Of a DNA stretch of 27,121 nucleotides, positions 7,119-26,975 are shown piece by piece; position 1 is the stretch's first letter; every line of letters starts with the position of its first letter. Under the pieces are notes generated by a model. It worked only from the letters and a program-made list of their open reading frames with translations. It was not told the DNA's origin and ran no database searches. Where the stretch lies: IMG/VR virus record IMGVR_UViG_3300035661_000284, positions 1 to 27,121 of that record; one strand, given 5' to 3'. The translations under genes were made by a program, and so were the position numbers. Source of the DNA: a virus. Lineage: Duplodnaviria; Caudoviricetes.

Positions 7119-8075
7119 TTAGAACGCTGAAAGATCAACTGTAAATTTATAAAAGAAATCACTATTTGTACCAGTTTCATCACGATCTGCTGGATTTTTT
7201 GTTAATGCGTATCTGTTATTGACAAATATTTTCATTGTACCATCATGTCCTGATGTTGATTCATATACTTGTGTTACATAAGGTGAGAAAATATATCCTG
7301 CATCACCTGGGTCTTTCCCTTGATGTCCTACGATTACATAATCATCTGTTGCATTGTTATCGATATAAATCTGAAAATTTGCAACAGTTCCAAGGTAGTT
7401 TTTGTGTTCTGTTTTCTCAACTGTATCTGAACCCAATGTTAACATCATACCAATTGATGGTGTACATATTACAAATGGATTAAAGAAACGGTTTGTTTTT
7501 GATAGAATTTCCCCGTAAAGTTTTTGTGCTCTATAGATAATTGAGTGTGTACCACCATCAAAGTCAGAATCTGTCTTAGGAATGAGATGTCCCGCATCTC
7601 CTGCACATGCACGAATATCAGCAATTAATGCACTATTCATATCTTCAATAAGTGTGCTTTTCAACCATGCTGTTAAAAAATCATACCCATTTTCACCAAA
7701 CTGATTAACAAGATCTTGGATAAATTCAATAGTAAAATCTGTTTCTATTTTATGATCTACAGCTGCTACAAAGGTTCTACGTGTTTCTATACCTGAACCA
7801 GGTCCTTCAATAACATTATCATTTGCATCACGTTTACGACCAATTGCAATAATATGACCTTCTGGACCTGTTAATGGTTGTATACTACAAACTTGTCCTG
7901 CAAGCGAAGATGGGTAAACTTCTTTAATAAGTTTTCCAATAATTCTGTCTGTTGGTGAGATATCAGTTGAATCAGTTCCACTCTCATCGATATTATCTTT
8001 AGAGACCTCAATCAATTCAGTCATTTTTGCTTTGATAGAATTTTCAATCACTAAATCTAAAAGTTTTTCATTCAT
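7119..8075 (-). CDS. Short gp23/gp24-family capsid protein paralogue (vertex/minor capsid); likely start 8075
   Basis: VYPSSLAGQVCSIQPLTGPEG, DYVIVG..G..PGDAGYIFSPY and RYAL..NP match T4 gp23 motifs; AAGGA RBS precedes ATG at 8075. Confidence 0.8.
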   Translation of the reverse strand: MNEKLLDLVIENSIKAKMTELIEVSKDNIDESGTDSTDISPTDRIIGKLIKEVYPSSLAGQVCSIQPLTGPEGHIIAIGRKRDANDNVIEGPGSGIETRRTFVAAVDHKIETDFTIEFIQDLVNQFGENGYDFLTAWLKSTLIEDMNSALIADIRACAGDAGHLIPKTDSDFDGGTHSIIYRAQKLYGEILSKTNRFFNPFVICTPSIGMMLTLGSDTVEKTEHKNYLGTVANFQIYIDNNATDDYVIVGHQGKDPGDAGYIFSPYVTQVYESTSGHDGTMKIFVNNRYALTKNPADRDETGTNSDFFYKFTVDLSAF

Positions 8076-8105
8076 ATAATGTTCCTTTAGTTGTTTCATT
8101 TTGAT

Positions 8106-9274: not shown

Positions 9275-10003
9275 TTATCCTGCAGTTATACCAAGAGGTG
9301 CTGACCAACGATCTAACAATTCTTGATTCAATCTATCAACATCAGTTTGACCTTGTGACATAATATCACTATAATTAAGTGTTGCTCCTGATAATATTGG
9401 TGCATTAAATTTACCAATATTATTTGCCCATTGAATACGTGCCTCTGCAACGCACATATCTTTAATCCACGGGTGATTAAAAATACCATCTATAGCATCT
9501 GGTTTATATAATGTCCAGCAATATAATAATATTTGTTTATTTCTAAGATAACAATCGTCCATAAACACTAATTTATTATTATTAGGATTGTATGAATAGT
9601 TGACTGGAATATTGAAATAATCTTGAATCATCTGAAACTGCGCTGATAACATCTGTATATCACTAAGGGACATTGCCCCACCTGTTGATTGAAATCCTAC
9701 AAAATTATAACTGTTTGTTAGAATATAACCACCAGGAAGAGAAAATGGAGAATAACTTGATGCCGTTCTGATGTCAATTATTGATGAGATACTATCATCT
9801 AATCTGTACTGAGATATGGTAGGATCCATTGGAATAATGAATAGACGTTCTTCCATCCCATCAATAGCATATTCAGAATATTTTCTGATAGTAGCATCAA
9901 TAATATCATCTATTTGTTCAGGTGTTAATTCAATATCATTTACTGGACTACCAAGACGACGTAGGATATAATCAGACAATTTATCTTTTGTATTGGTAGT
10001 CAT
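9275..10003 (-). CDS. gp13: T4 gp13-like neck protein
   Basis: L.DYILRRLG.P...IELT.EQI.D.I, W.K....A....QW..N..KF....L.G..LN, W..PLG..G. Confidence 0.9.
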   Translation of the reverse strand: MTTNTKDKLSDYILRRLGSPVNDIELTPEQIDDIIDATIRKYSEYAIDGMEERLFIIPMDPTISQYRLDDSISSIIDIRTASSYSPFSLPGGYILTNSYNFVGFQSTGGAMSLSDIQMLSAQFQMIQDYFNIPVNYSYNPNNNKLVFMDDCYLRNKQILLYCWTLYKPDAIDGIFNHPWIKDMCVAEARIQWANNIGKFNAPILSGATLNYSDIMSQGQTDVDRLNQELLDRWSAPLGITAG

Positions 10004-10008
10004 AAAAA

Positions 10009-10884
10009 TTAATTACCTGTTGTTGAAGTGTTAACTGCAGAAGAATTATCAAGTAACAATTCTTCTGTTGGTGCTACTGGTGTTTCAACAACTGGTGCTG
10101 TTGCATCTACTGGTGTTTCAACAACCGGTGCATCTACAACTGCTGGTGTTTCAACTGGTGCTTCGACAACTGGTGTTTCAACTGGTGCTTCAACAATAGG
10201 TGTTTCAACTGGGGCTTCGACAGGTGCATCAACAACTACTGGTGCTGTTTCAACTGGTGCTGTTTCAACTGGTGCATCTACAACTGGTGCATCTACAACC
10301 GGTGCATCAACAACAACTGGTGTTTCAACAACTGGTGTTTCAACTGGTGCATCTACAACTGGTACTTCAACCGCTGGTGCATCTACAACTGGTGCATCAA
10401 CAACAACTGGTGTTTCAACAACTGGTGTTTCAACTGGTGCATCTACAACTGGTACTTCAACCGCTGGTGTTTCTACAACTGGTGCATCAACAACTGGTGT
10501 TTCAACAACTGGTGTTTCAACAACTGGTGTTTCAACTGCTGGTGTTTCAACAGGTGCATCTACAACTGGTGCTGTTTCAACAACTGGTGCTTCGACAGGT
10601 GCATCAACAATAGGAGTTTCTACAGCTGGTGCTTCAACTGGTGCATCTACAACTGGTGCATCAACAACTGGTGTTTTTACAACTGGAGTTTTAACACCTT
10701 TTTTACCTGATTTTATTTTAGGTGTTTCTTCAGTTGTTTCTTCAATAATTATTTTGAAATGTTTAGGGAATTTTGTAGTAAGCTCAGATTCCATATATTC
10801 AATTCCATTTTTTATTACAACAATTTTGAATCCAAGGTCAACGCTGATACTTTCACGATCAAGATTTGCGATATATTTTTTCAT
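10009..10884 (-). CDS. Late protein with long Pro/Val/Glu/Thr/Ala low-complexity repeat (VETP/VDAP)
   Basis: AAGGA RBS, late promoter at 10911-10918, co-oriented with gp13. Confidence 0.75.
   Translation of the reverse strand: MKKYIANLDRESISVDLGFKIVVIKNGIEYMESELTTKFPKHFKIIIEETTEETPKIKSGKKGVKTPVVKTPVVDAPVVDAPVEAPAVETPIVDAPVEAPVVETAPVVDAPVETPAVETPVVETPVVETPVVDAPVVETPAVEVPVVDAPVETPVVETPVVVDAPVVDAPAVEVPVVDAPVETPVVETPVVVDAPVVDAPVVDAPVETAPVETAPVVVDAPVEAPVETPIVEAPVETPVVEAPVETPAVVDAPVVETPVDATAPVVETPVAPTEELLLDNSSAVNTSTTGN
10070..10690 (-). repeat. Degenerate 12-18 bp tandem coding repeat (CCAGTTGTTGAAACA / CCAGTTGTAGATGCA)
   Basis: Directly visible repeat encoding PVVET/PVVDA/PVET. Confidence 0.9.
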
Positions 10885-15772: not shown

Positions 15773-16669
15773 TTATATTTTTATTATTTTATCTAATTCC
15801 TGCAATACACGTTGAGAATTTGATTTTTTGTAAATATCATCCCACATTTCTTTGATTGCCTTGTAAGATGTTTTGTCTGGATTAAATCCTTTTACAGAAA
15901 CAAATCTCATAAATCTCCAGGCACGAAGATAATCTTCTTTGATTCTGTCTTTTGGTTTACCAACAAAACGTAATGTTTTTGATTTAATATCATTAAGTCC
16001 TTGCGTTGTAGGGTCAATCAATCTACGAGTTGTTAGGTTAAAATATAATGCATTTACAGTAAAATCACGTCTTTCTGCATCATCATAAATTGTTCCAATC
16101 TCAACACTTTCGGGACGTCTACCATCAACATATGTGCCATCTTTTCTATAATTTGCAATTTCATAATTAACATTATCCTTTGATACAATCATAACAAGAA
16201 ATTGTTTTCCTTCTTCTTTAACAGTGAACCCTGCATTGATAAAAAGTTTTTCTAATTCTTCATAAGGAATATCTGTAACAAAATCGAAATCTTTTGGCGT
16301 TTTGTCAATCAATATATCACGAACACATCCACCAACGAGACATGAATTTTCTGAATGTTGAAGAACCTCAATAATATCTTTAGATAAAAATGATGAAATG
16401 AGTTTAAATTTAAAACTTGCATTATCAAGATCTCTTAAGATATTATTAAGGATTTCTGACAATATTGTAAAATCTTTATTTCCAATACAGATTTCAAATA
16501 AATCATGTACTGTATAAAACAATTCAATATCTGTATTGTCTGCAAGGTCAATAAGTTTTCCTACCTGTTCAGCAGTACAATTTGTTTTAAGTGCTTTATA
16601 ATCATTTACTTTGTATCGGAAAAAATCTTCATTAATTTTATTAACTAGTATTTTTTTATATTCTTTCAT
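15773..16669 (-). CDS. cca: Class II tRNA nucleotidyltransferase (CCA-adding enzyme), compact, no HD domain
   Basis: LVGGCVRD, DFDFVT, EIA..R.D..Y.DGRRP loop, RRDFTVNAL, EDYLR templating motif. Confidence 0.9.
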   Translation of the reverse strand: MKEYKKILVNKINEDFFRYKVNDYKALKTNCTAEQVGKLIDLADNTDIELFYTVHDLFEICIGNKDFTILSEILNNILRDLDNASFKFKLISSFLSKDIIEVLQHSENSCLVGGCVRDILIDKTPKDFDFVTDIPYEELEKLFINAGFTVKEEGKQFLVMIVSKDNVNYEIANYRKDGTYVDGRRPESVEIGTIYDDAERRDFTVNALYFNLTTRRLIDPTTQGLNDIKSKTLRFVGKPKDRIKEDYLRAWRFMRFVSVKGFNPDKTSYKAIKEMWDDIYKKSNSQRVLQELDKIIKI

Positions 16670-16727: not shown

Positions 16728-16746
16728 ATTGATAATAATTATCAAT
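16728..16746. promoter_or_regulatory. Fur box (perfect 7-1-7 TGATAAT-A-ATTATCA; 9-1-9 palindrome)
   Basis: ATTGATAATAATTATCAAT, intergenic, 11 bp upstream of the cca promoter TTAAG. Confidence 0.7.
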
Positions 16747-17705: not shown

Positions 17706-18287
17706 ATGACTTTTCAAAAACTACTAGAAAAATTTACAGATATTGGAAAATTATCCGATACACAACTCAAGAAAGGACACCCACTTACTAATGAAGATTT
17801 TGTAGAAGTTGATGGCACTGTTTTTTTCAATGCAATTACAAAAATAAAAATTAATGACATTGCAAGATTAAACAAGGGATTGCCGTCAAAAGGATTACAT
17901 ACTCTTACAGTATATAAGCGTGATGATTATAACAAGATGAAATGTTACATAGGTGAAAATAATTCATCAGGATATGCATTACAAGATAAACACGAACTTG
18001 TATCTGTATTCAGTTCATTAGGTTCTTCAGGTAATGCAATTATGTTGTCTGCTGTTAAAAATGGTGCTAATCATTTAGATTGTTTTGCGTTACGTGATAA
18101 AGAAGGAAATATCTCAGGTCCATTGTACTCATTGTATTCAAAACATGGTTTCAAAATTGACAAATCAATGAATTCAGGAAAACCAGGTGAGTCATATGCA
18201 ATTGTTAAAGGCGTTTCAGATTACGTTGATGATAATGAAATTGTTCATCCTGATGATGAAAGAGTCGTTATCTTTATGAAACGATAA
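17706..18287 (+). CDS. GNAT-fold acetyltransferase-like late protein
   Basis: ELVSVFS...G.GNAIMLSAVKNGANHLDCF...LYSLYSKHGF resembles GNAT motifs A and B. Confidence 0.6.
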   Translation: MTFQKLLEKFTDIGKLSDTQLKKGHPLTNEDFVEVDGTVFFNAITKIKINDIARLNKGLPSKGLHTLTVYKRDDYNKMKCYIGENNSSGYALQDKHELVSVFSSLGSSGNAIMLSAVKNGANHLDCFALRDKEGNISGPLYSLYSKHGFKIDKSMNSGKPGESYAIVKGVSDYVDDNEIVHPDDERVVIFMKR

Positions 18288-19017
18288 TCATTCCTGCTTC
18301 ATAATTGCTGATAATTTCAAGAACATTGAATATATCAGCTTTTAAATTATCGAAATTATCAGTCTTAATTGCAACAAAATCTTCATTCCTCATATACAAT
18401 TTCCTATTAACCTCAATCATAATGCTTTGAACTTTATCACGATGTGTTGCATACCTATCAGGACATATGCTACCACTGTATGGATAATTGAAACTTACCT
18501 TATATCCTTTAGATGATAGATATTTGTAAATTTTCAATATGAGATACTGATCGGGTGCGTTATAATCAGTGAATCCAATACATATATCAGGTTCTGCAAT
18601 TCCTGCAATTCTATAACCAATTCCTTCTTGAAAAGAATGGCAATCAACAATTACTGAAACTGGATATATACCATGATATTGTTCTACAAAACTCTCTAAT
18701 TTTTTGTGATAATCAATATATTCTGATATATCATAATTTTCAACAGTTTTTAGTCGAAAACCATCAAGTGTTTTTGTGTAGATAATACCACGACCAGCAT
18801 TATTATTATCATATTCACGTGAATCATTGAATCGTTCCATATCAATATGTAGACGGCTTTTATCTGCAATCAATCTGGTTGATGCATCATACACAAATAA
18901 TTCATCTGTGAACCAGTCAGTTGAATAGAATAATTCTTTTTTAAGTGTTTCATCATTTACGAGGAATAATCCACGCTCATAAATTTTCGAACTTGCATGT
19001 GGGATGTTTAATATCAT
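18274..19017 (-). CDS. hutG: N-formylglutamate amidohydrolase (FGase family)
   Basis: IPHAS, TDWFTDELF, SRL.ID.ERF, G.G.IY..T, YH, DCHSF, PDICIG, N.PYSG, SIMIEVNR.LYM. Confidence 0.9.
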   Translation of the reverse strand: MILNIPHASSKIYERGLFLVNDETLKKELFYSTDWFTDELFVYDASTRLIADKSRLHIDMERFNDSREYDNNNAGRGIIYTKTLDGFRLKTVENYDISEYIDYHKKLESFVEQYHGIYPVSVIVDCHSFQEGIGYRIAGIAEPDICIGFTDYNAPDQYLILKIYKYLSSKGYKVSFNYPYSGSICPDRYATHRDKVQSIMIEVNRKLYMRNEDFVAIKTDNFDNLKADIFNVLEIISNYEAGMIIVS

Positions 19018-20116: not shown

Positions 20117-20344
20117 TCATACAACCTCTATTTTCTGAATATCATTGAAACTAAATGAATATTCTTCACATTCTTTATCGATACAACAAAAATATTCTTC
20201 TTCATCTAAATCAACATCTGTAATCCTATACAACATATCGTTAACTGTAACCATAACATCACCAGTCATTTGTAACTCAATAATGTCTTCTATTGTGACG
20301 TTAGGTAATGAATTTCTATATTCTGTGTATGTAATTGTTCTCAT
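20117..20344 (-). CDS. Hypothetical acidic early protein
   Basis: 75-aa ORF behind promoter+RBS cassette. Confidence 0.65.
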   Translation of the reverse strand: MRTITYTEYRNSLPNVTIEDIIELQMTGDVMVTVNDMLYRITDVDLDEEEYFCCIDKECEEYSFSFNDIQKIEVV

Positions 20345-20398
20345 TTAAATTCCTTCTTTCATTCGTTTGTTACAATAATTATATCATAATAATCTTAA
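20341..20398 (-). repeat. Promoter+RBS cassette copy 1 (58 bp)
   Basis: Near-identical to 20711-20768; contains TTAAG-N10-TATAAT, GAAGGA and ATG. Confidence 0.85.
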
Positions 20399-20405
20399 AA
20401 TAAGA

Positions 20406-20714
20406 TTAATAATTATCATTATATTTTTTCTTTGAAGATGAAAATGTAGCCATATCCTCAGAACAAAGATATAAATTACTCATAATAGTATTGAGTTTCA
20501 TATCATCTGATGTACGATTAACGCTCTGAATAAAGCGTGCAATATGTGTCTTACTACGAAATGCACCTGCAATCTTCAATAACGTTTCTTTTTTCCATGC
20601 AATGTCATGTGAATTCCAAAATTCTTTAACCAAATCTTTTGATAATTTGTTAAGATTTTCTTTGTTATCAAAGTTCCATTTTGTGTCATTAATAATTACG
20701 ATGTTATCAGTCAT
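20406..20714 (-). CDS. Hypothetical early protein; likely start 20714
   Basis: GAAGGA RBS before MTDNIV; lies between the two cassette copies. Confidence 0.7.
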   Translation of the reverse strand: MTDNIVIINDTKWNFDNKENLNKLSKDLVKEFWNSHDIAWKKETLLKIAGAFRSKTHIARFIQSVNRTSDDMKLNTIMSNLYLCSEDMATFSSSKKKYNDNY

Positions 20715-20768
20715 TTTAAATCCTTCTTTCATTCATTTGTTACAATAATTATATCATAATAACCTTAA
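20711..20768 (-). repeat. Promoter+RBS cassette copy 2 (58 bp)
   Basis: Near-identical to 20341-20398. Confidence 0.85.
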
Positions 20769-20796
20769 TGTATTATAAAGAAAATCTTCTAATTAT

Positions 20797-20856
20797 TCAA
20801 TGTATAAAATAAAATAACTGGGTTATATATTATAGTTATTTTATTTTATACATTGA
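20797..20856. repeat. Perfect 23-bp inverted repeat with 14-bp spacer
   Basis: TCAATGTATAAAATAAAATAACT / AGTTATTTTATTTTATACATTGA. Confidence 0.9.
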
Positions 20857-20874
20857 TTGGGAAACCCCAATCAA
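20853..20874 (-). terminator. 9-bp hairpin at the receptor stop codon (no clear U-tract)
   Basis: TTGATTGGG-GTTT-CCCAATCAA on minus strand. Confidence 0.45.
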
Positions 20875-22577
20875 AAATTATACCCAAGTCTTGCAGTAAA
20901 ACTTCGCTCAGGTACATCAACTGCAGAACCCATAACCCTACCATCATTATTGAATATATTGTTTAATGTTATTCCATATAACCATTTATTGTAAGTATTT
21001 GAATAACCAACATCAAATGTATTCAATCCTTTATTGTTATATTCATTATATGCAGAATTTATAACTCTTACATCATTCATATCTGATGCAGATAAGTTAA
21101 TTCCTTTATGTGCATAATTCCAGGTAACAAAATAATGATTATATTCATTTTTCCAATAAACTTTCCAAGGAGTGATTTTACTCATATAATCTGAATCATC
21201 TTTCCCATATACATATTGAAAATTAAATACAGAACCGAATAAATCTTTATCATATGTTAATGTTGCATCTACACCTTTAACGATACCATTTCCAACATTT
21301 TGTACTTGATATTGATCTACACCAGATATACGACCAACTTTAACACTTGATATTGCATTATCAAGATGCATATAATAACCACTGATATTGTAAGTAAAAT
21401 AATTAATCACATCTTTAATACCTAAAGAATATGTTGTTGACGTTTCTGGAACTAATGAATTATTCGGTACATCATTTCCTTTACCTGTAGTTATTGAATA
21501 ATAAAGATTATTCGCTGTAGGAAGTTTATATCCACCTCTTATGCTACCATATACAATATTTTTTTGTAATTCTACATTGTAACTGTATGTGTCGAAATTC
21601 TTAGTAACATCATTTTGTCTGTTTGTAGTTTGTGCCCATACACCATCAATATTTGTTTTTAATTTAATACCATCCAGTTCATTTTTGTAACCGATACCTG
21701 CAGTTGTAGTATTATATGTAAAATCTTTTTGATTATACATAAGATCTTCGTATGAATCCATCAATTTAACATTAAAACCAGAATCAAAATTATGTATATA
21801 TTTAGCACCATAAACATTATTAGTTGAATCAATCTCATTACCATTATCGTCTACATTTTCTACAAATCGTTGATAACTTATATTGAATATATCATTACTA
21901 GTTAGTTTATATGAATCTTTGATGAAAATATAATTCTGATCTAGATATGTATATGTTTTTCCTTGAATATATTTGTCTAATCTGTCAATATCTGATGATG
22001 TGCTATATAAAGCAATAAAAGTATTGTTTCCTGTATTATTTTTAATAAAGATTGCATTTTGATTGTATGCAGTATGATCGATATTATTATAATCATCTGT
22101 TTTGTATAACTTCAACCCGACAGTTGTATTATCATATTTCTCAGTTGCAATTAATTTTCTACCTTGATCATATGAACTATATTCTGTGTATATTTGTGAA
22201 ACATCAGTAAGATGCGAATCAACACTTAAACCAATTGCATTTCCTGATTCCAATTTGTAATCTACAAACTCATTAGGTATCCATGAAAAATATTGATTTG
22301 GGCCGCTTCTGAAATTTGAATTATTCATAATAACATCTTCAAATTTGACACCAACTAATTCGCCTTGAAGTCCCTGAATTACTGGACTATTCATTCCAGG
22401 TGCAGTTTGTTGAATATTCATTTTAGTTTGTATTGCACTAAAATCAACCTCATTATCTCTGTATTCAGGAATAGATATATATGATGATGAATTTGCATCA
22501 ACAATTATTGGTGGTAATGTAATATTATCTGATGCAGATAATATCATTCCTATTAATAATGATAAAAATATTTTCAT
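20871..22577 (-). CDS. TonB-dependent outer-membrane receptor
   Basis: Signal peptide; TonB-box-like TLPPIIVDA; plug SPVIQG...MNNSNFRSGPNQY; FRAP-like YKLPT..NLY and NPNL-like NNSLVPE; NNIFN; C-terminal PERSFTARLGYNF beta-signal. Confidence 0.88.
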   Translation of the reverse strand: MKIFLSLLIGMILSASDNITLPPIIVDANSSSYISIPEYRDNEVDFSAIQTKMNIQQTAPGMNSPVIQGLQGELVGVKFEDVIMNNSNFRSGPNQYFSWIPNEFVDYKLESGNAIGLSVDSHLTDVSQIYTEYSSYDQGRKLIATEKYDNTTVGLKLYKTDDYNNIDHTAYNQNAIFIKNNTGNNTFIALYSTSSDIDRLDKYIQGKTYTYLDQNYIFIKDSYKLTSNDIFNISYQRFVENVDDNGNEIDSTNNVYGAKYIHNFDSGFNVKLMDSYEDLMYNQKDFTYNTTTAGIGYKNELDGIKLKTNIDGVWAQTTNRQNDVTKNFDTYSYNVELQKNIVYGSIRGGYKLPTANNLYYSITTGKGNDVPNNSLVPETSTTYSLGIKDVINYFTYNISGYYMHLDNAISSVKVGRISGVDQYQVQNVGNGIVKGVDATLTYDKDLFGSVFNFQYVYGKDDSDYMSKITPWKVYWKNEYNHYFVTWNYAHKGINLSASDMNDVRVINSAYNEYNNKGLNTFDVGYSNTYNKWLYGITLNNIFNNDGRVMGSAVDVPERSFTARLGYNF

Positions 22578-22620: not shown

Positions 22621-23058
22621 TTGAAAAGATTCGATTTGATGTATCTAGATTTGTTAAATTCAGACTTATTAACTGATGATATGAGAAAAAATCTCAATAT
22701 TGATGATGTTCGTGAGGAATTCTATGAGAAAACAAGATTCAACGAGATAAACAGTTATGAAATTGTTTATGCCTGTTTTGAGATTGCTATCACACAGAAT
22801 ATTAAATTTAGCATTAATAATCTTATCAATGCTTTCAATGTAGTTAACCCAAAACATCATGTATTAGTTAAAGATTATCTTGATGATAAAATCATTAAAT
22901 TAATAAACGAATATAAGGATCAAACTGAAATTTATATTCTTATTGAATTAACTCAAGCACATCATTATTTTGATTATACTGCAGGATTTAATCCAAATAA
23001 GAAGATATGGTTAAAACATAAAGTTGTATCCCATATCATTCAGAAATTCAAAAATTAA
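22621..23058 (+). CDS. Hypothetical late protein; TTG start
   Basis: 145-aa ORF, AAGG RBS, late promoter. Confidence 0.65.
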   Translation: MKRFDLMYLDLLNSDLLTDDMRKNLNIDDVREEFYEKTRFNEINSYEIVYACFEIAITQNIKFSINNLINAFNVVNPKHHVLVKDYLDDKIIKLINEYKDQTEIYILIELTQAHHYFDYTAGFNPNKKIWLKHKVVSHIIQKFKN

Positions 23059-23458: not shown

Positions 23459-24556
23459 TTATAACCAATCATCTAATGATGAGGTTTCTTTAACAACGAA
23501 TTGTTTTTCATCAAGATAAAAATCTTGTACGTTTTTAGCTAGTTCAATAAAATTATTTTCACCAAGAAATGTAAGGATACTGTTTTTGTTATAAAATAAT
23601 TCAGTTTGTGAAAATTCTGCAAGTATTTTATCTTCTATGTTTTTAGGTATTTCAGAAAACATCACTAATGTTTTGTTTCTCTCATAATTCTGACGATACA
23701 TTGGATGTGCATTGAGGTTTTCCTCAAGATTAAGTATAAAATTTTCTATTGCTTTAGCACCGAATGAAACTGTTTTGAATATGTCTAATTCACCTGTTTC
23801 TATACCTTTATTAGGTCCTGATTTGAATTTTTTTTGAACGGTAAATTCTTTATATAATTTCTCTGAGATTGTTAATGAATTGAAATCGTTGACCTGTTTA
23901 ACATGAATGTCATTAGTTTTTAAATAGCTTATGAAGGCATCACTGAATTCCGTACCTTGTTTGATATTAGGAACATTATCCGCACTATCACCTGAAAGTA
24001 TATGTTCTTTAGTCCATTTTTCCATCTCATTTTTTGATAATGAGACAAATGATTGTTTAATTGGTGCGTATAATGCAATGTTATCAAGTTTCAATAATTG
24101 TTTAAAGTCTTTATCTTCTGATATTACAAGTGTTCTTTCTTTAAGGTTTTTTGCAAGAATAGCGATTACATCATCACCTTCAGCACCTTTTACACCAATA
24201 ACTTTATATGGAAAAATCTCTCTAATTTGTTCAATAAACTGATTTGCGAATTCATAAAATTCTTCAAAGTTAATATCTGACTCATCCCTACTCTTTGCAC
24301 GTTGTGCTTTATAATCAGGATAAAAATCTTTTCTCCAGTTGTTTCCTCGTACATCAAGGCATAACACCATCTCACCATATTCACATTGATATTTCTTTTG
24401 GATCAATCTCAATGAATTAAGCATAAGGTGTTTATAAAATTGTATAAAATCAACTGTTTTGTATTTTTTTGTTTCTTTATCTTTCTTAGGTCTTGCCTGA
24501 GAAACTGCTGTGAACAAATTTCTTGATGAAAGATGTGAATAATCTACAAGTATCAA
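23459..24556 (-). CDS. rnh: T4-type RNase H (5'-3' exonuclease/FEN family); TTG start
   Basis: ILVD, NWRKDFYP.YK..R, EGDDVIA, ISEDKDFKQL, GDSADNVP, NY.RN..L.....IP. Confidence 0.92.
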   Translation of the reverse strand: MILVDYSHLSSRNLFTAVSQARPKKDKETKKYKTVDFIQFYKHLMLNSLRLIQKKYQCEYGEMVLCLDVRGNNWRKDFYPDYKAQRAKSRDESDINFEEFYEFANQFIEQIREIFPYKVIGVKGAEGDDVIAILAKNLKERTLVISEDKDFKQLLKLDNIALYAPIKQSFVSLSKNEMEKWTKEHILSGDSADNVPNIKQGTEFSDAFISYLKTNDIHVKQVNDFNSLTISEKLYKEFTVQKKFKSGPNKGIETGELDIFKTVSFGAKAIENFILNLEENLNAHPMYRQNYERNKTLVMFSEIPKNIEDKILAEFSQTELFYNKNSILTFLGENNFIELAKNVQDFYLDEKQFVVKETSSLDDWL

Positions 24557-24586: not shown

Positions 24587-25549
24587 TTAAAGGTCCGACA
24601 AGAATGCTAAATCATCTGCATCATCAATTGAATCCGCTTCTTTTTCTACAACTTTTTCAGTTTTTATTTTTTTAACTGGTTCGTCTGCAATAGTTTTTCT
24701 ATCTGCCTTCATTACCATATCGTCAAGATCATCAAGACCTGTATCGATTGCTGGTGCAGATTTACCAGTTCCTTGTGCAGGTTTGTTTGTTTCTTTTGTT
24801 CCCATTACGAAAGCAAATTTATCAGCAAGTTCTGCATATGTTTTGAAATGTTTTACATCTTCAAATTCTTTAAGATTTATTGTACGAGTTGTAATAACAT
24901 CAATTGCTTCATCTTTTGAATCAAAAACTTCTGATGGTGACATGATAACTGTGTCATCATATGTTGGAAATCCACCTGCACCATTTTTAATTTTCAATTT
25001 GATGTTTGCACCTTTAAATGCATGCCACAATGGAATTGGTTTTTCACCCATTGACAAATCTTTTTCTGATGGATTTGTAACTGACATAAATTTATCATAC
25101 AATTTTGTTCCAAATTTCCAGTAAAAGATTTTACCTTCATTAGATGGATTTTCAGGATCTTTAACGATAAGTACGTTAGTAATGTAATTGATTTTACGAC
25201 TAAATGGACGTGCTTCATCTTTTGCTTCATCAGTTCCGATAGCATTCATTTCAAGGTAATGTTCAGTAATAGGACATGGTAATCCTAATGTAGATGGACT
25301 ATCTTCGATATACCACAATTTTTTATTACGGGATTTACTCCAAATACCAAATGAATGTGAATACATTTTTGTGTATGGTTTACCATTTTGATCTGGTAAT
25401 AAACGAATGATTGCTTGACCATCACCTTTTTCATCACGTGATAATTTCCATTCACGTTCATCTGGCACGTATGTCGATTTTGTTTGTTGGCTATGTGCCG
25501 ATAAATTTTTTGTAACGTCTGCCCAGTTTTCTTCAAATAAATTAATCAT
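24587..25549 (-). CDS. gp32: T4 gp32-like single-stranded DNA-binding protein; start 25549
   Basis: D.R.WKL..D..G.G.A.IR.LP, WYIE..P.T.G..CP, NVLIVKDP.NP.NEGK.F, GAN.KLK, YD, acidic tail; AAGGA RBS before ATG 25549. Confidence 0.93.
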   Translation of the reverse strand: MINLFEENWADVTKNLSAHSQQTKSTYVPDEREWKLSRDEKGDGQAIIRLLPDQNGKPYTKMYSHSFGIWSKSRNKKLWYIEDSPSTLGLPCPITEHYLEMNAIGTDEAKDEARPFSRKINYITNVLIVKDPENPSNEGKIFYWKFGTKLYDKFMSVTNPSEKDLSMGEKPIPLWHAFKGANIKLKIKNGAGGFPTYDDTVIMSPSEVFDSKDEAIDVITTRTINLKEFEDVKHFKTYAELADKFAFVMGTKETNKPAQGTGKSAPAIDTGLDDLDDMVMKADRKTIADEPVKKIKTEKVVEKEADSIDDADDLAFLSDL

Positions 25550-25683: not shown

Positions 25684-25691
25684 TATTTATA
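25684..25691 (-). promoter_or_regulatory. T4-type late promoter TATAAATA upstream of gp32
   Basis: Exact intergenic match. Confidence 0.65.
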
Positions 25692-25699
25692 TTTTTAAA

Positions 25700-26398
25700 T
25701 TACTCAGATACTACGTTAATAACGACTTGTAAACTTGGAACATCCAAAGATGTAAACATTGTGATATACGATTTTGTTTTAGCATTTTGTGCAACTTTTA
25801 CAGAATAATTACTTGCAGGAAGTTTTTTGATGTTTTCCATATCAATAATTATATTATGTACACCTGTGTTTGTTGCATCTGCAATCTTGATTTTAAAATT
25901 GTTTGATGATACTTTGTTCTGACCTGTAATTGTAAGATCGATTGAATCATCATTTGATGCAACAACAATATGCTCAAGTTTCAATAATGAAGATGTTTTT
26001 TTCAACTTTTCAAGAACTGCACTTTCTAGTTTGAACTCCATTGCTGATGGTGCTGCTGCAATATTTTCAGGAATTTTTGGGTTTGCTGAAAATGTCTGAC
26101 TCAATAGGTCAATGTTTGTTGTAAAATATTTGATTGAACTGTTATCATTTTTGATAGTAATAACACCATCATCCAATGTAACTTTTGCATTATCAATAAC
26201 ACCTAAAACTGATAGTAATTCTGAAAGATTAAAAATACCATAATCCTCAAATTCTTCTTCACCAAATTGTGAAAGATCAATAAATGCGACCATTGATTTA
26301 CCTGAATCTTGAATACCTGTAATTGGGTATCTGATGATTGCTGCTGTAGAAATTGATGCTAGATCACCTAATATCGCTTGTGTTTTTTTGCTTAACAA
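25700..26398 (-). CDS. gp45: T4 gp45-like sliding clamp; TTG start
   Basis: MLSK.T..IL.....I, F...GI..L.E.LS.L, N.K.LP..Y.V.V; size 232 aa; synteny with gp32/rnh. Confidence 0.8.
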   Translation of the reverse strand: MLSKKTQAILGDLASISTAAIIRYPITGIQDSGKSMVAFIDLSQFGEEEFEDYGIFNLSELLSVLGVIDNAKVTLDDGVITIKNDNSSIKYFTTNIDLLSQTFSANPKIPENIAAAPSAMEFKLESAVLEKLKKTSSLLKLEHIVVASNDDSIDLTITGQNKVSSNNFKIKIADATNTGVHNIIIDMENIKKLPASNYSVKVAQNAKTKSYITMFTSLDVPSLQVVINVVSE

Positions 26399-26474
26399 AT
26401 GTGCTCCTTTAACGAAATAAAAATTGTTGAGACCAGTTTAGATATTGGGCTCAATCACTTCTGTTTGTTGTGAT

Positions 26475-26493
26475 GATAATGATAATCATTATC
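26475..26493. promoter_or_regulatory. Fur box, exact 19-bp consensus GATAATGATAATCATTATC
   Basis: 19/19 match to the classical Fur consensus. Confidence 0.85.
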
Positions 26494-26511
26494 AATTAAA
26501 TTTTTTGAGTT

Positions 26512-26536
26512 AAAAAAAACGGATATTTCTATCCGT
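26512..26536 (-). terminator. Rho-independent terminator (copy 1)
   Basis: ACGGATA-GAAA-TATCCGT followed by T-run on minus strand. Confidence 0.85.
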
Positions 26537-26550
26537 CTATTATCATTATT

Positions 26551-26569
26551 GATAATGATTATCATTATC
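26551..26569. promoter_or_regulatory. Fur box, exact 19-bp consensus in reverse orientation
   Basis: GATAATGATTATCATTATC is the reverse complement of the consensus; extra ATTATC/ATTATT hexamers at 26539-26550. Confidence 0.85.
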
Positions 26570-26587
26570 AATTAAATTTTTTGAGTT

Positions 26588-26612
26588 AAAAAAAACGGAT
26601 ATTTCTATCCGT
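26588..26612 (-). terminator. Rho-independent terminator (copy 2)
   Basis: Same GAAA-tetraloop hairpin plus T-run, 25 nt after stop of ORF 26638..26922. Confidence 0.85.
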
Positions 26613-26637
26613 CTATTAAATATGTTTGTGAATTGTC

Positions 26638-26922
26638 TTAATTGATACGTGCGATGATTTGTTCTGATTGTTTTGTGATTACTTCTTTTGCAATACGTGC
26701 TGCCATACGTTTATCAGCACCTTGTAAAATTAAATCATCTTTTGCTTTCGCAATAAACTCATTTACAATTGATGGAATGTTACGTGTACATTCAATTTTC
26801 ATTATTTTACCAAATGCTTCTGCAATGTCAGAAACTGCTGTTCCTTCAATTAACTTTTGTGCATATGCTTTCAATTCTTTTTCTAAATCTGCAACGATAT
26901 TTGTGTTTACTGTGATTGCCAT
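26638..26922 (-). CDS. Hypothetical helical early protein
   Basis: GAAGGA RBS, own promoter and terminator. Confidence 0.75.
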   Translation of the reverse strand: MAITVNTNIVADLEKELKAYAQKLIEGTAVSDIAEAFGKIMKIECTRNIPSIVNEFIAKAKDDLILQGADKRMAARIAKEVITKQSEQIIARIN

Positions 26923-26953: not shown

Positions 26954-26975
26954 ATTATAACACATTTAAACTTAA
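26954..26975 (-). promoter_or_regulatory. Early promoter TTAAG-N11-TATAAT
   Basis: TTAAGTTTAAATGTGTTATAAT. Confidence 0.75.

Follow-up and report, generated by a model that had tools for sequence, protein, structure and literature searches.

Organization of the orf94-gp45 region

On the minus strand of the window (the whole stretch of phage DNA that was analysed, 27,121 nucleotides), orf94 is followed by a predicted terminator, a box, a second predicted terminator, a second box, a leader, gp45, gp32, and the gene of an RNase H-type exonuclease, here called rnh (Table 1). The order gp45, gp32, rnh downstream of the boxes, given in a preliminary description of this DNA, was confirmed by the gene annotation. 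Positions 26475-26493 read GATAATGATAATCATTATC, the exact Fur 19-mer, and the exact reverse complement of this sequence is found at 26551-26569. The units that contain the 19-mers, 26474-26542 (proximal to gp45) and 26550-26618 (distal), are alike at 68 of 69 bases, and their sole mismatch is the box centre, with A at 26484 and T at 26560. The claim of two perfect boxes in paired units was thus upheld, with 0 mismatches to the Fur operator consensus in both 19-mers and three perfect sites of the 7-1-7 form. The identification of the 19-mer as the classical Fur consensus agrees with the available text of PMC3788343, PMC7762939, and PMC4506495, where the 19-bp consensus is read as two overlapping 7-1-7 sites bound by two dimers; in the MgFur structure (PMC4506495, available part), the 19-mer is occupied by two dimers.

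Table 1. Positions of the genes and predicted elements discussed in the text
Feature	Position	Strand	Remarks
orf94 promoter, strong early-type (predicted)	26954..26975	-	TTAAG-N11-TATAAT; 33.6 bits, with this promoter included in the matrix training set
orf94 (94 aa)	26638..26922	-	Precedes the units; in relatives without boxes, it likewise precedes gp45
Distal intrinsic terminator (predicted)	26588..26614	-	GAAA-loop hairpin, then eight T; identical to the folded proximal copy
Distal Fur box (putative)	26548..26572	.	19-mer 26551-26569 within a 25-bp palindrome, centre unpaired; AATCAT, not TATCAT, toward gp45
Inter-unit junction (7 bp)	26543..26549	.	Box-like letters; covered by unitigs in X2, X3, and X4
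Proximal intrinsic terminator (predicted)	26512..26538	-	T run ends 17 bases before the box
Candidate host-type promoter	26479..26499	-	TTAAT-N10-TATCAT; inside the proximal box, toward gp45; probable start near 26472
Proximal Fur box (putative)	26474..26494	.	19-mer 26475-26493, two overlapping 7-1-7 sites
gp45 leader (about 75 bases)	26399..26472	-	Contains a ribosome-binding site; last 40 bases conserved in relatives
gp45, sliding clamp	25700..26398	-	PF09116; phrog_223, E 3e-29
Late-type element of gp32	25691-25684	-	TATAAATA
gp32, single-strand DNA binding protein	24587..25549	-	PF08804, E 2.5e-35
rnh, RNase H-type 5'-3' exonuclease	23459..24556	-	PF02739, E 4.6e-19
TonB-dependent receptor	20871-22577	-	PF00593; 83-87% in three relatives; also in other viral contigs
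Third Fur box (putative)	16728..16746	.	Perfect 7-1-7 at 16730-16744

The genome is 71% A+T, and all three boxes of the window are intergenic. The scan against a shuffled background bore out the earlier description: three sites at three or fewer mismatches from the 19-mer were observed in the window, compared with 0.10 expected (100 shuffles). Markov models of order 2-4 predicted 1e-5 to 7e-5 exact 19-mers per window; in these chance estimates, the two unit copies were counted as one event. Since one exact 19-mer is possible by chance over very many windows, the case leans on context as well.

The presence of a GAAA-tetraloop terminator in each unit was also verified, a minus-strand hairpin and eight T residues being found in both. 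The hairpin has a folding energy of -10.2 kcal/mol (z -3.7) with only three G-C pairs, and the predicted terminator starts 24 bases past the orf94 stop codon, so that a stable hairpin and a U run lie downstream of a gene as in intrinsic terminators. By the filter criteria of this analysis, these two are the sole minus-strand terminators of such a type in the 27-kb window.

Family and fold searches with the orf94 product gave no family and no usable fold match; orf94 is 43% identical in L002 and L144. In the gp45 leader, TTGAG...CTCAA arms (26427-26454, minus strand) are kept in L002 and L003 around a differing inner sequence. The leader stem folds in two of three phages, and its z values of -0.1 to -1.0 are not significant.

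No iron gene was identified in the window. The TonB-dependent receptor was considered as the iron gene to which the boxes might belong, and this was not supported: the best site near it scored 11.3 with the host motif described below, and a plus-strand ORF separates it from the gp45 block. The neighbourhoods of its cellular relatives also speak against such a role. In L064 and L065, these relatives sit among PhoD, PhoX, purple acid phosphatase, and GDPD genes, and two of the three annotated cellular neighbourhoods hold PhoD, PhoX, or other phosphoesterase genes; the phage receptor may therefore serve phosphorus uptake. Just downstream of the receptor gene is a perfect 23-bp inverted repeat with a 14-base spacer (20797-20856). 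Two 72-bp promoter-plus-leader cassettes, 86% alike, lie at 20341-20412 and 20711-20782, each before a small gene of unknown function. Elsewhere in the window are a host-like protein of the N-formylglutamate amidohydrolase family (18274-19017, minus strand), a 291-aa protein (10009-10884, minus strand) in which imperfect 15-base repeats encode a repetitive low-complexity stretch, and a 326-aa gp23-like protein (7119-8099, minus strand), which is shorter than the usual T4 major capsid protein and is possibly a vertex-type paralog.

Duplication of the unit and natural alleles

The junction between the units was spanned by mismatch-free unitigs in the runs X2, X3, and X4, which may stem from one campaign. 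In X3, the 58 shared bases had a depth of 54.8, the unique pieces being at 26.2, 26.4, and 29.7. The centre bases of both units were covered as well. Misassembly of the second unit, which had been raised as a possibility, was ruled out because the junction is spanned in three other runs and the repeat stands at twice the flank depth in one of them. The distal unit is genuine and is a recent tandem duplication.

Single-unit alleles were found as well. In type 1 (X5, depth 15.1; X5 and X6 gave near-identical tables and were counted once), position 26479 is joined to 26550, the one unit exceeds by six bases what a plain deletion would leave, and a G-U pair of the hairpin is changed to A-U at 26613. 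Type 2 was seen in X3 (depth 11.2) and X5 (depth 7.1, joint 3.5) and has a different left flank; among its listed changes, the TTAAT element is gone and a hexamer is added on the terminator side. The changes given are those listed for each allele, and further differences near the ends of the pieces can be missing, so that the box sequences of these alleles are approximate readings. A 34-base piece from X9 with unlike flanks and a joint of 26459 to 26536 (depth 3.8, side 22) were left out of the allele evidence. Across the natural alleles, the site has thus been made longer or been doubled by three different routes, and the allele without TTAAT but with a longer hexamer run fits selection for binding better than selection for the promoter.

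Similarity of the boxes to the iron-gene motif of the probable host family

The host is probably a Sulfurimonas-type member of the Campylobacterota, as judged from gp45, the promoters, the TonB receptor, and the sample types. Among cultured phages, gp45 is matched best in those of Campylobacter, at about 33% (52 of 58 records), the TTAAG-N10/11-TATAAT promoters of the phage correspond to the Campylobacterota type, and the nearest cellular relatives of the TonB receptor are from Sulfurimonas, Sulfuricurvum, and Campylobacterota assemblies. The runs that contain the phage DNA are from sediment, mat, and vent samples. The family of genome G006 (Sulfurimonas sp.) was taken as the host-family set. 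Fur-family genes (PF01475) were present in all five of its genomes tested, with up to four per genome, and feoA was present in 58 of 61 genomes.

None of 151 host-family genomes had the 19-mer within 1 mismatch. Within 2 mismatches, it occurred in 17 genomes (23 sites, all with exactly 2), compared with 12 sites in nine genomes for the control. Among 17 host loci retrieved at 2 mismatches, 12 are intergenic; three precede iron-uptake genes (feoAB twice and ChaN) and three precede porin-like genes. Of 13 host places retrieved at three or fewer mismatches, four adjoin imelysin genes, one adjoins a TonB receptor gene, and five are inside ORFs. The host operators upstream of feoAB, imelysin, and ChaN genes are themselves predictions.

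In order to avoid circularity, a palindrome sampler was run without any consensus on 26 feoA upstream regions, which were obtained from 30 loci after removal of unlocated, short, and near-identical ones. The de novo motif, AATGATAATNATTATCATT, has the 7-1-7 Fur form and reached 15 bits, compared with about 8 in shuffles. When this motif was applied to the window, the top five sites (18.5-21.4) all fell in the three boxes and the next site scored 11.3. The best three window sites scored 20.5-21.4, compared with a median of 17.7 and a best score of 21.4 for the host feoA sites. The phage boxes therefore match the iron-regulon motif of the inferred host lineage, and the three of them rank first. 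On these grounds, the boxes are very probably bound by a Fur-family protein.

The third box lies 13 bases upstream of a TTAAG-N11-TATAAT promoter (16716-16695) of the tRNA nucleotidyltransferase gene at 15773-16669. In the sister phage L143, the best site (15.8; next 7.6) is at the position of the third box, and it is weaker than that of the window by a matrix built from 21 of the 26 host feoA sites, five unclear rows having been dropped. The location at a canonical promoter and the counterpart in L143 fit a putative operator role for this box. The product of the gene (minus strand) is a host-like tRNA nucleotidyltransferase that is short but has some 100 additional residues at its N terminus.

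A candidate promoter in the proximal box

The preliminary description placed a promoter, TTAAT-N10-TATCAT, inside the proximal box. As a variant of the phage's own strong promoters, which are of the type TTAAG-N10/11-TATAAT and score 22-38 bits in their own matrix, this element is poor; nothing above -13.8 was found with the strong-promoter matrix on the minus strand at 26440-26660. On the other hand, its layout is that seen upstream of host feoA. The pattern TTAAN-N10/11-TAT(A/C)AT, with the -10 inside the box, was directed toward feoA in 13 of the 26 host-family upstream regions and was reversed in two of the 26 (Fisher p 0.002), for a pattern that was set after inspection of the host sequences and among genomes that are mutually related. 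The spacer is N11 in 11 of the 13 host cases and N10 in two; that of the phage is N10. The same promoter pattern occurs without any box at 22903, 1215, and 4517.

Only the proximal copy has the host-type layout toward gp45 (26499-26479); in the distal one the hexamer is AATCAT, and there is no good -10. The centre base of the box had been described as the position that a palindrome leaves free. Either A or T keeps the consensus, but only a T on the minus strand yields the -10 hexamer. As TATCAT is directed toward gp45 in the proximal copy only, the centre base would be free for Fur and not for the candidate promoter.

Occurrence in related phages and other viral sequences

The relatives L002, L003, and L004, whose gp45 is 76-79% identical, have the same gene order, and the box, the T-run terminator, and the promoter pattern were absent in 3/3, with L003 and L004 reading alike at the orf94-gp45 site. 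In 4/4 related, incomplete records, no 19-mer within 3 mismatches was found. The preliminary description had named absence of the motif from the syntenic site of relatives as evidence against its reading; the motif is missing at this distance, which counts in part against that reading, and one unit is kept in the closer alleles. The cassette is therefore confined to a narrow lineage, for which it would be a tuner rather than the core switch of the phage group.

The relatives show other hairpins at this site. In L003 and L004, positions 9815-9890, at the orf94-gp45 site, contain a different short duplication, a CCTCCTCT stretch, and an AGACAG motif that is shared with L002. The site seems to collect lineage-specific repeats. 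Metagenomes yielded at least one close locus (L036), in which the upstream sequence covers 91 bases only.

The exact 19-mer was found in 31 viral stretches, which form 15 clusters with this phage counted in; one composition-matched control palindrome gave six stretches (4 clusters). Of the 31, 27 are outside ORFs of at least 70 aa. Representatives of five of the clusters are near terminase large-subunit genes. Matches in cultured phages were too short and mixed and were left out. Among the matches listed, a terminator before the box was present in 7/88 viral clusters and 2/89 clusters of the control palindrome, which is not significant (Fisher p 0.10); the counts were the same with the terminator filter at 4 or 3 G-C pairs, and the 4-pair setting misses the hairpin of the window itself. 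In five of the seven terminator-bearing viral clusters listed, the terminator is 13-19 bases before the box. In 13 related viral loci (L005-L007, L010-L015, L026, L031, L034, and L035), an exact 19-mer upstream of terminase genes is preceded, at a distance of 14 bases, by a terminator. Some of these boxes have A at the centre and others T, which may be a real inversion or an effect of short-word assembly. In L017, 14 near-perfect 7-1-7 sites occupy about 550 bases (1501-2064) next to tail genes and extend to the contig end.

Discussion

The anatomy described above can be read as a predicted terminator and a Fur-overlapped promoter that head the gp45-gp32-rnh operon and were recently duplicated, a reading to which we give even chances. 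The terminator would close the orf94 message and shield gp45 from transcription that begins at the strong orf94 promoter. The boxes would be operators for host Fur, with the gp45-side copy overlapping a weak host-type promoter from which the gp45-gp32-rnh message would start. Iron-loaded Fur would then damp gp45-gp32-rnh, with release under iron shortage or once the growing number of phage genomes has diluted Fur. The distal unit would supply one more terminator and one more high-affinity site; since it has no good -10, a role in tighter insulation or as an auxiliary operator is suggested. If Fur represses, the supply of the clamp under iron-rich conditions would depend either on transcription through both terminators or on a promoter that was not recognised. 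The sign of the regulation is not fixed as repression, because Fur of C. jejuni also has activating modes according to the available text of PMC5940780. The earlier suggestion that clamp and SSB expression are gated together applies less well to the SSB, which need not be gated, as gp32 has its own late-type TATAAATA at 25691.

The preliminary description left open whether the phage gates these genes on host iron or uses its boxes as a sponge for Fur. The layout shared with 13 of 26 host feoA regions favours gating, and no positive evidence for a sponge was found here. If the amplified boxes acted as a decoy that pulls Fur off host iron-uptake promoters, the position before gp45 would be merely a tolerated intergenic spot. 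Such a function, which we consider unlikely, would suit an exact consensus in the phage when 0/151 host-family genomes have a site within 1 mismatch, the three ways in which natural alleles lengthen or double the site, and a distal copy without a good -10; multicopy boxes are known to titrate Fur in FURTA (available part of PMC3788343). A decoy would be expected to consist of many or dense sites away from promoters. Only three boxes occur in the 38.5 kb in view, about a quarter of the genome (completeness 24%), so that the remaining genome could alter the count, and two of them are at promoter-like positions. The terminator and the promoter layout are not needed for a decoy, and the window contains no identified iron gene. 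Fur is present in thousands of copies per cell, and host transcription has usually been shut down in T4-like phage infection by the time of DNA amplification, both of which weigh against a decoy. That viral contigs can carry arrays is seen in L017, which is a better decoy candidate than this window. It is rather improbable that gp45 is transcribed by read-through from the orf94 promoter and that the polymerase is stalled on the terminator by Fur sitting 17 bases beyond the T run, so that the leak is closed, an effect that doubling of the unit would square. A roadblock of this kind would explain why terminator and box were duplicated jointly. Read-through looks ancestral because the relatives have neither the T-run terminator nor the promoter pattern, and the 13-19-base spacing recurs in 5/7 of the viral clusters listed, including the 13 related loci upstream of terminase genes. 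Against it, the excess of 7/88 over 2/89 clusters listed has a p value of 0.10 and is confounded, since true boxes are intergenic; moreover, two of the seven clusters seem to belong to a single family. Equal spacing would also result if a Fur-overlapped promoter came after a terminator, as in L321 with TTGACA-N17-TATCAT. Our literature search returned no paper on the pairing of a terminator with a Fur box.

The palindromes might also have nothing to do with Fur and be near-neutral: an AT-rich site for a phage protein or for a different paralog of the Fur family, or a run of hexamers that is prone to slippage at a rapidly changing intergenic site. The hypervariability of the site, the different short duplication in L003 and L004, the up to four Fur-family genes of the hosts, and a 71% A+T genome that is only partly in view are consistent with this. 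We nevertheless regard it as improbable, given that the host feoA motif is matched three times, to all appearance independently, at two locations, and given the occurrence of the exact 19-mer in 15 viral clusters compared with 4 for the control and mostly (27/31 stretches) outside ORFs of at least 70 aa, and the retention of orf94 in relatives without boxes. A role of the palindromes at the RNA level, as hairpins or small RNAs within the orf94-gp45 message, is very hard to credit. Both boxes do fold as hairpins (z about -3.0 and -3.2), as any palindrome would, and the relatives have other hairpins here. The stems are AU-rich, however, the distal box lies behind a terminator, the sequence matches the host operator motif beyond mere pairing, and Rfam gave no match. 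A wider reading, which combines elements of those above and which we hold to be doubtful, is that gp45-gp32-rnh was rewired from plain read-through to an iron-gated terminator and Fur-box cassette that is tuned in populations by lengthening or doubling; Fur would act both on the promoter and as a roadblock to read-through, and replication would track host iron or Fur titration.

The putative gp45 operator resembles the classical Fur box in that the exact sequence is present twice and a candidate -10 is overlapped, as in classical repression. It differs in that it is found in a T4-like phage at replication genes instead of iron genes, is paired with a terminator and duplicated, and is a site of putative binding. 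With the feoAB, imelysin, and ChaN operators predicted in the Sulfurimonas family, it shares the 7-1-7 motif and the TTAAN-N10/11-TATCAT layout with the -10 inside the box; the host sites, in contrast, are degenerate (none within 1 mismatch in 151 genomes) and mostly N11. The stx1 promoter of lambdoid prophages is repressed by Fur and is likewise a phage-borne promoter overlapped by a Fur box, but stx1 is a cargo gene of temperate phages, whereas the genes concerned here are core replication genes. The nearest tested precedent is the binding of host PhoB to the DNA polymerase promoter of cyanophage S-PM2d, shown by gel shift in the available part of PMC10976474, where the S-PM2d DNA polymerase and uvsX promoters and pstS of P-SSM2 are given as PhoB-controlled. 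In both cases, a T4-like phage would tie replication genes to a nutrient regulator of the host through promoter boxes. As far as the available text describes it, PhoB activates under phosphate starvation, whereas Fur probably represses here, a prediction from sequence. Among the papers listed in a literature search, with most subscription journals outside its range, none dealt with Fur boxes at lytic-phage genes, and the main text of PMC11531552, on Sulfurimonas phages, contains none of the whole words Fur, iron, and TonB.

The cassette is small, its target gene is named, and it has a one-base control built in (TATCAT and AATCAT) as well as natural one- and two-unit alleles. It therefore allows the operator, roadblock, and decoy models to be separated by reporter and gel shift assays with the phage itself uncultured. 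If the gating reading is true, a virulent-type phage of sulfur-oxidising Campylobacterota would use Fur to sense the iron status of its host at the core genes of replication, and the precedent of phosphate and PhoB would extend to iron, in habitats with wide swings in iron.
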